From Escherichia coli (GTDB taxonomy: Bacteria > Pseudomonadota > Gammaproteobacteria > Enterobacterales > Enterobacteriaceae): a stretch of 64,000 nt of DNA. Position 1 is the stretch's first letter, and the number at the start of each line of letters is the position of its first letter. The stretch is taken from the NCBI RefSeq assembly GCF_030013205.1, contig NZ_CP122648.1; one strand, written 5' to 3'. Of this stretch, positions 1,508-31,421 are shown in pieces. The notes below the pieces were generated by a model. That model worked only from the letters and a program-made list of their open reading frames with translations, had not been told where the DNA came from and ran no database searches. The translations under genes and the position numbers were made by a program.

Positions 1508-2370
<863 letters not shown>

Positions 2371-2402
2371 TTAGCGGGGGAAGCAAAATGCCTCCCCCGG
2401 TT

Positions 2403-2420
2403 GTACTCGCTAAAGAGTAC
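2403..2420. promoter_or_regulatory. TrpR operator (trpR autoregulation)
   Basis: GTACTCGCTAAAGAGTAC is a near-perfect palindrome of the GTACT..AGTAC Trp-repressor box type. It lies 48 bp upstream of the trpR start. Confidence 0.6.
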
Positions 2421-2444
2421 GATAGCATATCATAAACGTGCGGA

Positions 2445-4382
2445 TCAGTAACGACGTCCCCATTCCGTGGCGCTCATCAATGTCGGTTTATCCCCCATGA
2501 AATAGCGGTAGTAAGCGTCATAAGCCAGCACGTTCTTCACATAACCGCGCGTCTCGGAGAACGGAATACTCTCGACAAATGCCACTGCGTCGATACGCCC
2601 GGCGCTGTTGCCAAGCCAGGTTCGCACCCGCCCTGGTCCGGCGTTATAAGCTGCTGAGGAGAAAATACGGTTATTACCAAACTGCTGATAAACATATTGC
2701 AGGTAACTGGTGCCAATGTTGATGTTCGTTTCCGGATCCAGCAATTGTCCTGGGCTGCTATAACCAGGAATAGAGAACATCTTCACCGTATGGGTCGCCG
2801 TGCCCGGCATAATCTGCATCAGGCCGCTGGCCCCTACCGGCGATTTCACTTTCGGATTCCAGGCACTCTCCTGACGGGCAATCGCCATCGCATAGCTTTG
2901 CGGGATCTCCTTCCCACTGGTGTAACGTTTGAAAAGATCGTTGTAGGCCAGCGGGAATCGTTCTTCCAGATGATCCCAAAGCTTCCCGGCGATCGTTGCC
3001 TGAACGCTAAGATCCCACCATTGGTTATTGAAAGCATACCGAGCCAGTTGCGCCTGCTCTGTTTTTGACTTGCTCTTCACCAGATTGGCCCACTCGCTAC
3101 GCGCGGTGTTATCGAGATTCCAGTACATCAACTCGCGCACGCGCGCCATCTCCGGCCCCTGAGTCAGGGCGCTGTCAACATTCTGCGGCGCTTTATCAAT
3201 CTTCAGCTCATACTCTTCTCCGATGCGTTGTGCTGCAACCATCGGGTAGAAACCACGCTGTTGCATGAGTTGATGCAAAATCTCTTTTGCTTCAGCTTCA
3301 CGTCCGCGTTCCAGCAGTAAATCCGCCTGCCAGTAACGCCATTCATCTTTCTCTTTCGCCTCCATCGGCAAACGCGCCAGCCAGGTATTCAGGCCGCGAC
3401 GATCGCCGGTGCCAAGCGCCATTCGCACACGGCGTTCAATAAGCGAAGTAGATTGCGAACGCATAATGGCGTCATCACGCCATTTCGCCTGTTCGTCGGT
3501 GACATCGTTGCCCATCAAACGCCAGGCGACGATATCGCGCAGCTCCTGAATCTGATCTTCATTAAGCTGCTGCGCCTGGGCAAGCGACGGGATCATCAGC
3601 CGTGCATTTTCAGCATCCTGCCGCGCCACACTGGCAAACGCCACCGCCGCCATTTGACGGGTAAAATCGGTCGCTCCGGTTGTACGCGCGAAGGTCAGTA
3701 CCGTATTAGGATTGTTCGCCAGTGAAATAATTGCCGAAGCGATAGTCTGGTAATCGGCAGGCATCTGCCCTGCCAGCACTGTTACCAGGCCAGTGTTACC
3801 CGCTTTCATCGCCAGACGGATACGCTCTAAATACGCCAGCGGATCTTGTTTACCTGACGCACGCCAGACGCTAAATAACTTGTCACAGGCGTTAGGCTGG
3901 CTCTTGCCGGTTAGCCACAGCTCTTTCGCCCCTTGCCAGGCTTCTTCACTCTGCCCGGTATTCCATTTCGCATAGTAGTAATTACATTGCGCTTCGGTAG
4001 TTCCGGGCTTTTCCGGGCTAAAGGCTAACAAGCCACGCCAGTCTTCACGCCGCGCCAGTTCATTGACGAAACGAGATTGCAGCGTGCGAGCGGGAGGAAG
4101 CGTGGGGTTAGCGCGAACAAAGTTAGTGACCGTCACCGCCGGTTGATTCATCAGGTCATCGGTGATCTGACGGTATTCCAGGTAGGGATAAAGCGGATAA
4201 TCCTTCAGTCCCGGCATCATTTGTTCGACCACATCCATTTGTCGATTATCCCAGGCCTGCTTGATTTGGGCGTAGCGGCTACGCTGCTCATCCAGTGAGT
4301 CGGCTCGCGCCACGCTGCTGACCGTCAGCAGACAGACACCGGCAGCCAACAGCCGCCAGGTAACGTGTTTGGCTTTTTCCAC
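2445..4382 (-). CDS. slt: Soluble lytic murein transglycosylase Slt70
   Basis: The ORF matches Slt70. The GTG at 4382 (..VEKAKHVTWRLLAAGVCLL..) gives the 645-aa K-12 length. The signal peptide and C-terminal ESAWNP..GLMQIMP lysozyme-like motif are present. Confidence 0.95.
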   Translation of the reverse strand: MEKAKHVTWRLLAAGVCLLTVSSVARADSLDEQRSRYAQIKQAWDNRQMDVVEQMMPGLKDYPLYPYLEYRQITDDLMNQPAVTVTNFVRANPTLPPARTLQSRFVNELARREDWRGLLAFSPEKPGTTEAQCNYYYAKWNTGQSEEAWQGAKELWLTGKSQPNACDKLFSVWRASGKQDPLAYLERIRLAMKAGNTGLVTVLAGQMPADYQTIASAIISLANNPNTVLTFARTTGATDFTRQMAAVAFASVARQDAENARLMIPSLAQAQQLNEDQIQELRDIVAWRLMGNDVTDEQAKWRDDAIMRSQSTSLIERRVRMALGTGDRRGLNTWLARLPMEAKEKDEWRYWQADLLLERGREAEAKEILHQLMQQRGFYPMVAAQRIGEEYELKIDKAPQNVDSALTQGPEMARVRELMYWNLDNTARSEWANLVKSKSKTEQAQLARYAFNNQWWDLSVQATIAGKLWDHLEERFPLAYNDLFKRYTSGKEIPQSYAMAIARQESAWNPKVKSPVGASGLMQIMPGTATHTVKMFSIPGYSSPGQLLDPETNINIGTSYLQYVYQQFGNNRIFSSAAYNAGPGRVRTWLGNSAGRIDAVAFVESIPFSETRGYVKNVLAYDAYYRYFMGDKPTLMSATEWGRRY

Positions 4383-28747: not shown

Positions 28748-28862
28748 TGTACAATCATATGTACAAAGAAAAATTCATGCCGCTGATTGTACATTTTGGA
28801 GGTATCAGAGCATAGCAGAACATGATCAGTAGGTGTATTTGTAGCCAAAGAACATTTGTACA
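28748..28862. repeat. Cluster of four TGTACA-core sites (candidate integrase arm-type sites, prfC-proximal end)
   Basis: TGTACA at 28748, 28760, 28788 and 28857, in the contexts tATGTACAAt, tATGTACAAa, aTTGTACATt and tTTGTACATg. A mirror cluster lies at 53286-53342. Confidence 0.45.
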
Positions 28863-28887
28863 TGCAGCAATCTTTGTTCTATTGACA

Positions 28888-28931
28888 CTGTTTATTCATA
28901 CAGTTAAAAATAACACTGTATACAAACACAG
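28888..28931. promoter_or_regulatory. Two tandem LexA (SOS) boxes in the dinI-like promoter
   Basis: CTGTTTATTCATACAG (28888-28903) and CTGTATACAAACACAG (28916-28931) both fit CTGT-N8-ACAG. TTGACA at 28882-28887 precedes box 1, and the ATG of the DinI-like gene is at 28947. Confidence 0.75.
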
Positions 28932-28946
28932 TGTAGAGGGATTTTT

Positions 28947-29195
28947 ATGCGTATTGAGATCTGCATAGCTAAAGAGAAAATGACTAAAATGCCAAGCGGT
29001 GCTGTGGATGCGTTAAAGGAAGAATTAACTCGACGCATCAGTAAGCGTTATGACGATGTAGAGGTGATCGTAAAAGCCACCAGCAACGATGGCCTTTCTG
29101 TTACGCGCACCGCCGATAAAGATTCAGCTAAAACTTTTGTTCAGGAAACTCTGAAAGATACCTGGGAGTCTGCTGACGAGTGGTTTGTTCATTAA
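28947..29195 (+). CDS. DinI-like protein (prophage-encoded)
   Basis: 82 aa, [59 protein letters not shown], parallels E. coli DinI (MRIEVTIAK..AIDAL..ELSRRI....ILQETWESADDWF). Confidence 0.85.
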
Positions 29196-29226: not shown

Positions 29227-29256
29227 TTGACTTTAAGATCATTAAATTGTAATAAT
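29227..29256 (+). promoter_or_regulatory. Candidate sigma70 promoter of the RT cassette
   Basis: TTGACT (29227-29232), a 17-nt spacer, then TAATAA preceded by TG. This predicts a start near 29262. Sequence match only. Confidence 0.35.
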
Positions 29257-29260
29257 TCAA

Positions 29261-29397
29261 AAGGATGGGGCAGGTTTTTCCTCTTGTGCATGCAAGGGCG
29301 GCTCTGATAATGAACAGTAATATTTTACTGTTGAGCTTATGCTCACTGATCCTGCCGGGCAGGATGTTCAATGATTCCAATATATCCTGCCCCTTCC
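29261..29397 (+). ncRNA. Candidate structured leader / ncRNA upstream of the SLATT-RT pair
   Basis: Closing helix GGATGGGGCAGG (29263-74) with CCTGCCCCTTCC (29386-97). Internal hairpins at 29313-29332 (8 bp, perfect), 29333-29344 and 29349-29365 (17-nt palindrome). The 8-mer ATCCTGCC recurs. Confidence 0.35.
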
Positions 29398-29417
29398 GCT
29401 TTTAAAAAGGATCTTTT

Positions 29418-29969
29418 ATGCATGACAATATTTGGTTTACATATAAAGCCCGTATCCAAGCGCACCATCGACTAGAATGGCTTGAAAAGCACTCTCAATT
29501 TATCCTCGTTTGGTATGCTATATTGAGTGCGGTACTTTCAATTGTAACGTTGCGATTTCCAAAAGTTCTAGGAGATAACACAGATATCGTTGCGGCAATA
29601 CTTTCGGTGGCCCTACTGGGTATTTCGCTGATCGTATCTAACCTAGATTTTCGTGGTCGAGCAATAGCCATGAGAAGGAATTATATTGCACTACAGCGAC
29701 TCTATTTTGACATTACCACCAGTCAACAGTTAACTCTTGAACAGAAAGAAAAATATTTTAATTTGCTCAATGAGGTTGAGAATCACCGTGACATAGATGA
29801 TAAAATTTCAAGGGTAACTCAAGTTGGACTTACGACGAGGATCCCCACACAAAAAGAAAAAATAATTGTTATTTTATGGATATTACTTCGAATATTTACT
29901 ACTGCCGCCCTTTATATACTCCCATTAATATATCTTTGGATTGACTATGACTGCAAGCAGAATTTTTAA
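29418..29969 (+). CDS. SLATT-like 2TM (+1 C-terminal TM) membrane effector candidate
   Basis: 183 aa. An N-terminal amphipathic helix (IWFTYKARIQAHHRLEWLEK) is followed by TM hairpin FILVWYAILSAVLSIVTL / IVAAILSVALLGISLIVSNL, a helical middle and a C-terminal TM IIVILWILLRIFTTAALYILPLIYLWI. RBS AAGGA upstream. The 3' end overlaps the RT start. Confidence 0.6.
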   Translation: MHDNIWFTYKARIQAHHRLEWLEKHSQFILVWYAILSAVLSIVTLRFPKVLGDNTDIVAAILSVALLGISLIVSNLDFRGRAIAMRRNYIALQRLYFDITTSQQLTLEQKEKYFNLLNEVENHRDIDDKISRVTQVGLTTRIPTQKEKIIVILWILLRIFTTAALYILPLIYLWIDYDCKQNF

Positions 29970-31380: not shown

Positions 31381-31421
31381 AGCCGCAGTATCCTGCCATG
31401 GCAAGTTACTGCGGCTTTTTA
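31381..31421 (+). terminator. Rho-independent terminator after the RT gene
   Basis: AGCCGCAGTA..TACTGCGGCT is a 10-bp stem followed by TTTTT. The loop carries another ATCCTGCC copy (31390-31397). Confidence 0.65.

Follow-up and report, generated by a model that had tools for sequence, protein, structure and literature searches.

A structured leader RNA of a SLATT-reverse transcriptase operon in Escherichia coli as the probable noncoding RNA of a DRT10 (UG17) anti-phage system

The stretch analyzed in this study (the window) comprises 64,000 nucleotides of the Escherichia coli contig NZ_CP122648.1 and contains, on the + strand, an operon coding for a SLATT-family membrane protein and a reverse transcriptase (RT). 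Nucleotides 29263 to 29399, directly upstream of these genes, almost certainly encode the noncoding RNA (ncRNA) of a DRT10 (UG17) anti-phage system that is identical, or almost so, to the published Eco_3_DRT10. A prior reading made from the letters alone (the original prediction) had proposed that a promoter-driven, structured RNA at this position serves as a template for the adjacent defense RT, and this reading is borne out by the DRT10 gene families, by the match to a published RNA, and by covariation. The leader is a correct rediscovery of a known, experimentally characterized element that was already described in 2025.

UG17 RTs together with SLATT proteins constitute the DRT10 defense system, and the statements on Eco_3_DRT10 given here and below follow Tang et al. 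(bioRxiv 10.1101/2025.10.16.682844, 16 October 2025; PMC12632851). The Eco_3_DRT10 RT binds an ncRNA of 137 nt, which is encoded upstream of SLATT and formed by one basal stem and four stem-loops (SLs), and the SLATT and RT genes overlap. The product is a protein-primed, kilobase-long single strand of tandem 5'-GAATCATTG-3' repeats, and the priming residue is the C-terminal S456 of the 456-aa RT. The template is described as A-B-A', in which A (nucleotides 107 to 110) ends with U110, B has five nucleotides, and A' reads C116-A117-x-U119. This unit is located immediately 3' of SL5, in a loop of which twenty positions were probed, and scrambling of SL5 abolishes repeat synthesis. Phage defense by Eco_3 requires the ncRNA, SLATT, and the RT (PMC12632851). 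Mestre et al. (2022) noted the UG17-SLATT association and predicted no UG17 ncRNA; the 2025 paper is therefore the first description.

The same template is found in the window. The 13-mer CAATGATTCCAAT (CAAU-GAUUC-CAAU) is located at 29369-29381, 3 nt after SL5, and corresponds to the published repeat, reverse-complemented, with A' after it (CAATGATTC-CAAT); likewise, the reverse complement of 29369-29377 is GAATCATTG, the published 9-nt complementary DNA (cDNA) repeat. The published U110, C116, A117, and U119 coincide with T29372, C29378, A29379, and T29381 only when nucleotide 1 is placed at 29263. Nucleotide 1 is then G29263, the first base of the basal stem SL1, located 7 nt past the -10 hexamer of the promoter, and nucleotide 137 is 29399, 2 bases past SL1. 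The loop holding the template is 20 nt long, which equals the number of substitution positions tested by Tang et al. The template lies in none of the helices: it is the unpaired loop that links SL5 to the 3' strand of SL1. The original prediction was right to read the leader as an RT template, but it did not locate this site. Table S1 of Tang et al. lists an RT (OKX54664.1, E. coli 703491, encoded on LRLX01000203.1) that is identical to the window RT over the displayed stretch.

The window element is also like Eco_3_DRT10 in its position upstream of an overlapping SLATT-RT pair, in a 137-nt span that fits the distance from promoter to SL1 exactly, in the basal stem with four stem-loops and the 20-nt template loop after SL5, in the template CAAUGAUUC, which CAAU follows in agreement with the published base numbering, and in the 456-aa RT ending with Ser. 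No difference was observed among these features. The tyrosine recombinase neighbor of Eco_3_DRT10 has its counterpart in other E. coli copies of the cassette, whereas the window cassette adjoins prfC, with no integrase between prfC and a DinI-like gene.

Homologous loci were collected from one-genome-per-species contigs (14 usable loci with 58 to 84% RT identity, covering Xenorhabdus, Buttiauxella, Photorhabdus, Pseudomonas, and Stutzerimonas), from viral contigs (31 loci), and from protein look-ups (11 loci, covering Klebsiella, Pantoea, Pectobacterium, Yersinia, Proteus, Aeromonas, Morganella, and Serratia). A leader homologue is present at the same place in all 14 genome loci. When 15 sequences from 6 genera were aligned with MAFFT and folded with RNAalifold, the same five helices were obtained, with compensatory changes in 15 of the 35 pairs. 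The covariance model built from this alignment (R1) gave 48 matches, one per locus wherever the upstream DNA was covered and all on the + strand, and a single match in the 64-kb window (29259-29403, 132 bits). A second alignment (A2), fitted to the model, contains 34 distinct sequences, to which the homologue counts below refer. Standard pairs occupy 98.7% of its pair cells, compared with 92.6% in shuffles and approximately 50% when the partners are slid by 1 to 3 columns, and double changes are observed in 19 of the 35 pairs (102 cells), compared with 11.7 pairs (27 cells) after shuffling. All 500 shuffles stayed below the observed value on every measure, and compensatory pairs are present in every helix. 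Moreover, when the homologues were trimmed to SL1 and folded singly, 25 of 34 shared at least 80% of the consensus pairs. The original prediction had staked its helices on covariation among homologous loci, and all five were recovered.

The minimum free energy (MFE) of 29263-29399 is -54.0 kcal/mol (z = -4.66), and none of 200 dinucleotide shuffles folds as well. The MFE structure of the exact 137-mer is the consensus fold, i.e., a closing helix and four hairpins, so that the leader folds into SL1 to SL5 by both thermodynamics and covariation. The closing helix and the hairpins that had been predicted (beginning at 29279 and at 29313-29332, 29333-29344, and 29349-29365) all appear in this structure at their predicted coordinates. 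SL1 is composed of 3 and 8 bp around a U-U mismatch, with compensatory changes in 8 of 11 pairs and 96.8% of the cells paired. The SL3 loop differs in length among the homologues. The SL5 stem has 7 bp in E. coli and 6 to 7 bp, allowing G-U, in close enterics, while it has 5 to 6 bp (AUCC[C/U]-loop-GGGAU) in other homologues (Pseudomonas, Photorhabdus, Proteus, Morganella, and Aeromonas); lying directly 5' of the template, SL5 is the published candidate for a template boundary element. The RNA was assigned to the + strand because two invariant U-G pairs in SL2 are compatible with + strand RNA only. The reverse complement, as expected, yields an equally good fold, and a minus-strand RNA was ruled out by these invariant U-G pairs together with frequent G-U pairs, by the orientation of the promoter, and by the published RNA immunoprecipitation sequencing. 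The unpaired junction CUCUGAUAAUG between SL2 and SL3 may be an element that contacts the RT. Across the six genera, few parts of the RNA are as conserved as this junction, which is not singled out in the accessible part of the published work.

Table 1. Features of the DRT10 locus (positions in the window)
Feature	Position	Strand	Remarks
Predicted sigma-70-type promoter of ncRNA and operon	29227..29256	+	Score 10/12, TG before -10
Probable DRT10 ncRNA, 137 nt	29263..29399	+	Boundaries set by registering published Eco_3 numbering on template
SL1 5' strand (basal closing helix)	29263..29274	+	Pairs with 29386-29397; RNAalifold
SL2 hairpin	29279..29301	+	9 pairs, 3 with compensatory changes; 99.3% paired
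Unpaired junction CUCUGAUAAUG, SL2-SL3	29302..29312	+	Mostly invariant across 15 sequences; unpaired in consensus fold
SL3 hairpin, 8 bp here, loop UAUU	29313..29332	+	100% paired, 2 pairs compensatory
SL4 hairpin, 4 bp	29333..29344	+	4/4 pairs compensatory, 99.2% paired
SL5, 17-nt palindrome AUCCUGCC-G-GGCAGGAU	29349..29365	+	100% paired, 2 pairs compensatory
Template loop, 20 nt, single-stranded, GUUCAAUGAUUCCAAUAUAU	29366..29385	+	Unpaired in MFE and consensus folds
Template A-B (CAAU + GAUUC), CAAUGAUUC	29369..29377	+	Exact match to published motif
Alignment (realignment) segment A' (CAAU)	29378..29381	+	Invariant CAA; published mechanism
SL1 3' strand CCUGCCCCUUCC	29386..29397	+	RNAalifold, pair counts
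SLATT_5 two-transmembrane effector gene	29418..29969	+	Pfam SLATT_5 4.8e-28; PADLOC RTasSLATT 7.9e-57
UG17 (DRT10) RT, 456 aa	29947..31317	+	PADLOC RT_UG17 5.9e-159; RVT_1
Predicted intrinsic terminator of cassette	31381..31421	+	-21.3 kcal/mol, z = -5.38

The A-B-A' arrangement of the template is conserved in all 34 homologues, in which the CAA core of A and A' is invariant and B is variable. The alignment of 15 sequences shows no variation in GUUCAA, where the loop begins, or in CAA of A', and B varies between them. The arrangement is, for example, UCAA-CGGUAC-UCAA in Pseudomonas and UUCAA-UAAGUA-UUCAA in Morganella and Proteus. The homologous templates predict cDNA repeat units of 9 to 11 nt across the genera. 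E. coli itself has a second, common allele (CAA-CGGUUC-CAA), in which the loop is GUUCAACGGUUCCAAUAUAU in place of GUUCAAUGAUUCCAAUAUAU and which would yield a different 9-nt repeat, GAACCGTTG, with a 3-nt A/A'. The loop GUUCAACGGUUCCAAUAUAU was observed in loci L019, L020-L023, L025-L028, and L040. At two loci with this CAACGG allele (L019 and L022), an 11-mer of the ncRNA that spans the end of SL5 and the start of the template, ATGTTCAACGG, recurs after the cassette terminator, approximately 105 to 115 nt past the RT stop codon, where the window carries ATATTTAACGG; this recurrence may be due to chance.

The predicted promoter consists of a -35 hexamer TTGACT (29227-29232), an 18-nt spacer, and a -10 hexamer AATAAT (29251-29256) that is extended to TGtAATAAT (29248-29256), and its score is the joint highest of the promoter-like sites in the 3-kb region. 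The TTGACT-17-TAATAA promoter of the original prediction is the same site as TTGACT-18-AATAAT, read one base earlier, and the transcript start placed near 29262 agrees with the published numbering. In most of the homologues, the -10 hexamer ends 6 to 7 nt before the first base of SL1; the promoter sequences differ (TTGACT-18-CATAMT in enterics and TTTCCA-18-TAGAAT in Pseudomonas), while the position is kept. The site probably functions as a promoter, judging from its sequence, and transcription would start at approximately 29263, as the geometry and conserved position of the promoter and the length of the published RNA indicate. The SLATT start codon is located 18 nt past the 3' end of the ncRNA, the Shine-Dalgarno (SD) sequence AAGGA (29407-29411) lies in this gap, and no + strand terminator was predicted between the ncRNA and SLATT. 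With this short gap and no predicted terminator, the SLATT-RT mRNA is expected to start at or upstream of the ncRNA promoter, most simply at the promoter itself, and the ncRNA would double as the 5' leader of the operon, for which the predicted label "5' leader" is apt. The combination of SL1 and the U-tract at 29400-29403 was rejected as an intrinsic terminator that would set the 3' end of the RNA, since the U-tract is not conserved and the scan gave no + strand terminator there. The 8-mer AAAAGGAT flanks the ncRNA, with one copy at 29259-29266 overlapping the start of SL1 and the other at 29405-29412 containing the SLATT SD sequence.

The two genes of the operon belong to the DRT10 families. 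The RT, read from ATG 29947, covers the RT_UG17 model of PADLOC over its full length and matches Pfam RVT_1 (9.5e-21); its translation retains the catalytic YxDD motif as YVDD and ends in ...DISGIS, in which the last Ser is residue 456. A C-terminal Ser is found in every RT homologue whose reading frame is intact. The SLATT gene ends at 29969 and therefore overlaps the RT gene by 23 nt. The features characteristic of DRT10 are accordingly present together: a UG17 RT with YVDD, an adjoining SLATT_5 gene with gene overlap, a covariation-supported ncRNA with a basal stem and stem-loops upstream of SLATT, an A-B-A' unit in a single-stranded loop 3' of a stable stem-loop, and a C-terminal Ser on the RT. 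RT matches one base short, with 1,367 nt in place of 1,368 nt, were observed at two homologous loci (L032, match 2285-3651; L040, match 2501-3867). The RT frame of L032 terminates in ...NLAIVK and not in ...DISGIS, which indicates a one-base deletion that would eliminate the C-terminal priming serine, either as a natural inactivation or as an assembly error.

Several points weigh against this assignment. The identity with Eco_3 is based on the 13-nt template, the numbering, the length and terminus of the RT, and the Table S1 entry, and that the window locus behaves like Eco_3 is a presumption by analogy. No terminator follows the ncRNA to form its 3' end. Alignment A2 was fitted to the model and therefore favors the structure; this bias is mitigated by the MAFFT/RNAalifold result and by the slid controls. 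Finally, the leader with its flanks (29255-29420) folds stably, but its MFE structure (-54.3 kcal/mol, z = -3.28) is an alternative pairing and not the closing-helix fold that had been predicted for this interval.

This alternative pairing is linked to the 8-mer ATCCTGCC, which was reported by the original prediction at 29349, 29358 (as its complement, on the minus strand), 29384, and 31390 and is indeed present at these positions in excess of chance: the window contains 8 copies, compared with 2.0 expected from shuffles, and none of 100 shuffles reached 8. The four complementary copies (ATCCTGCC/GGCAGGAT) can pair as 1:4 plus 2:3, which is the published fold, or as 1:2 plus 3:4, and the leader could thus be an attenuator- or riboswitch-like switch, possibly in addition to a template, that controls how SLATT-RT is expressed or whether the template is accessible. 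SLATT starts 18 nt downstream of the ncRNA, which is thus physically the leader of its mRNA, and the MFE structure of 29255-29420 is the 1:2 plus 3:4 pairing, in which the template is held in a 14-nt hairpin loop and 29260-29266 pairs with 29411-29417, adjoining the SLATT SD sequence. In the window sequence the consensus and alternative folds are nearly isoenergetic. However, the alternative helices (29269-29274 with 29351-29356 and 29357-29367 with 29382-29392) were paired in 72.3% of the cells when scored on A2, compared with 71.3% in shuffles, and contained 3 double-change pairs, compared with 3.6 expected; the helix enclosing the template was 62.8% paired, and the set was indistinguishable from the shuffled and slid controls. 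The mature RNA, in contrast, has the consensus fold as its MFE structure, as do most homologues at the 80% level given above. The full 8-mer repeat was observed in E. coli sequences only, close enteric relatives having a shorter form, and the repetition arises because these lineages have a lengthened SL5 (6 to 7 bp), the arm of which resembles the 3' strand of SL1, while SL5 is shorter in other genera. Rfam contains no riboswitch or leader matching this region, no terminator separates the ncRNA from SLATT, and two conserved, mutually exclusive pairings leading to a terminator or to SD sequestration, as expected of an attenuator, were not found. A conserved switch made of the four copies is therefore unsupported, and we consider control of this kind quite improbable.

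The same resemblance allows a narrower proposal. In E. coli and close enterics, SL5 is lengthened to a near-copy of the SL1 3' strand (AUCCUGCC twice plus its complement), and the primary transcript, being the SLATT-RT mRNA leader as well, could adopt a second fold; a toggle between the folds might control access to the template, maturation of the ncRNA, or translation of SLATT-RT. In the second fold, the template would be in the 14-nt hairpin loop, SL1 would be half open, and 29260-29266 would be paired beside the SLATT ribosome-binding site. We regard this proposal as unlikely; if true, such a lineage-specific toggle would be a regulatory layer absent from the published work. The fourth copy of ATCCTGCC, at 31390-31397, is located in the cassette terminator, a hairpin (31381-31416) with a 10-bp stem and a short upper stem followed by UUUUU. 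It was examined as a partner of the ncRNA and rejected, because it is found only in E. coli cassettes that share the whole 3' untranslated region (3' UTR), and Klebsiella, Serratia, Xenorhabdus, and Pantoea have similar ncRNA stems with unrelated 3' UTRs that lack ATCCTGCC. Its inclusion in the repeat set did not hold outside the E. coli cassette, and it is treated as a chance or lineage-specific copy.

The original prediction also offered a small or leader peptide as the conserved element, encoded by a 46-codon open reading frame (ORF) at 29265-29405, in place of the RNA structure. The frame is indeed open, with an ATG start and AAGGA immediately upstream, but the ORF is not conserved among the homologues. 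An ATG is present at the aligned position in 13 of the 34, the longest frame that begins with ATG and crosses the region varies from fewer than 10 to 67 codons, in differing reading frames, and neither start codon nor frame is kept; the loop indels are not multiples of three, and the substitutions are compensatory pairs and not third codon positions. The spacing between SD and ATG is zero, and the ORF has no Pfam or PADLOC match. We give this explanation practically no weight. Equally remote is a retron-type msr-msd RNA giving branched multicopy single-stranded DNA (msDNA), or a template of the DRT2 or DRT9 type. As in a retron, a structured RNA that serves as a template adjoins a defense RT; several sources label this RT a "retron-type reverse transcriptase," and it has weaker PADLOC matches to Drt2, Drt3a, and Drt9. 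The best model is nevertheless UG17 (5.9e-159), whereas the other DRT classes score 1e-20 to 1e-37, and the top PADLOC matches include no retron RT model. The RT is not of the retron clade, the RNA is a closed multi-stem structure with a template loop, and there is no evidence here for flanking a1/a2 repeats or a branching G. The products published for the template CAAUGAUUC are protein-linked linear tandem repeats and not branched msDNA (PMC12632851). The DRT9 (UG28) ncRNA, according to Tang et al., is similar in its basal stem with stem-loops, its template in a loop, and its protein-primed RT; however, it has a conserved poly-U template that gives poly-dA, whereas the loop in the window has no poly-U tract and carries the heteropolymeric A-B-A' unit characteristic of DRT10, and the window RT matches the Drt9 model at only 6.3e-20.

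The DRT10 assignment can be further compared with a second UG17 system and with telomerase. Sanchez-Nieto et al. (bioRxiv 10.64898/2026.04.29.721553) described a UG17-A ncRNA of approximately 143 nt with 7-nt repeats, in a system controlled by SbcB and a phage SSB-like trigger. This RNA, from Escherichia sp. E3659, belongs to the same type of ncRNA-SLATT-RT locus (UG17-A in Pseudomonadota), and the two are alike in the tandem-repeat cDNA and in the basal SL1, which in E3659 is needed for RNA stability; the host exonuclease SbcB modulates that system. The E3659 RNA differs in its length, in its six stem-loops, in its 7-nt repeats formed via two ACU motifs, and in its unrelated sequence, and the E3659 probe sequence is absent from the window leader; given these differences in size, stem-loops, template, and sequence, it belongs to a different ncRNA clade. 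Telomerase RNA resembles the DRT10 RNA, with no homology claimed, in having a short template with a downstream alignment segment that repeats the template start, a structured boundary element 5' of the template, and processive repeat addition by realignment. On the other hand, the DRT10 RNA is much smaller, its RT is primed from a C-terminal serine and not from a chromosome end, and its product is free single-stranded DNA for immunity.

By analogy with Eco_3, from the literature on which RT binding, the cDNA product, serine priming, and the defense phenotype are taken, the following mechanism may be proposed for the window locus. The extended -10 promoter at 29227-29256 would transcribe the RNA, which would fold with the basal SL1 carrying SL2 to SL5 and leave the 20-nt loop between SL5 and the SL1 3' strand single-stranded. 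The RT would bind this RNA, prime DNA synthesis from its own C-terminal serine, and copy the 9-nt template CAAUGAUUC (29369-29377) up to a boundary set by SL5. The nascent DNA would then re-anneal to the downstream CAAU (29378-29381) and be extended again, and repeated cycles would produce long single-stranded tandem GAATCATTG repeats in a telomerase-like manner. Phage defense would be conferred jointly by this cDNA, the RT, and the membrane protein SLATT.

The element matters biologically as the RNA subunit of a minimal telomerase-like RT used by bacteria and prophages against phages, and the DRT10 RNA can be reprogrammed to make arbitrary tandem-repeat DNA. Publication of these principles dates from October 2025, with an extension in April 2026, and the window adds no new one. 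It does reveal an annotation gap: the leader occurs at an identity of at least 95.9% in 187 of 5,426 complete E. coli genomes and is unannotated in all of them, the RNA being absent from RefSeq annotation and without an Rfam family. A scan against Rfam 15 at a permissive E-value gave chance-level matches only (E of at least 2.8, far below the gathering scores). The promoter, the boundaries, and all five helices were recovered blind by a reader of the sequence only.

Upstream of the cassette, a DinI-like gene (28947-29195; Pfam DinI 1.5e-19) is followed by prfC and osmY on the opposite strand, and prophage tail-fiber genes are located downstream. Two LexA-box-like motifs (CTGT-N8-ACAG) were observed just upstream of the DinI-like gene, at 28888-28903 and 28916-28931, and the window contains 4 such motifs, compared with 0.7 expected. 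No + strand terminator was predicted between the DinI-like gene and the DRT10 promoter, and SOS-induced transcription could therefore enter the ncRNA and SLATT-RT. In E. coli PSJ-23, the cassette lies between a tyrosine integrase plus DinI and tail-fiber genes, in a lambdoid prophage at dusA, and its leader bears no annotation. The DinI-ncRNA-SLATT-RT block of PSJ-23 (L058, 7593-9000) follows the tyrosine integrase that adjoins dusA, whereas in the window (28755-28946) the DinI-DRT10 end of the prophage adjoins prfC without an intervening integrase; the cassette is thus found at more than one chromosomal site. Other settings were observed outside E. coli. The DRT10 locus adjoins a P4-type primase gene (Zn_Ribbon_Prim/Toprim_3/D5_N) in Pantoea (L049 and L050) and an HNH_5 protein in Morganella (L055); these are mobile-element or defense-island contexts, unlike the lambdoid prophage of E. 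coli. In an Aeromonas-type contig (L054, 1-295), a second RT-like ORF of 495 aa with a weak RVT_1 match is located directly upstream of the DRT10 ncRNA-SLATT-RT.

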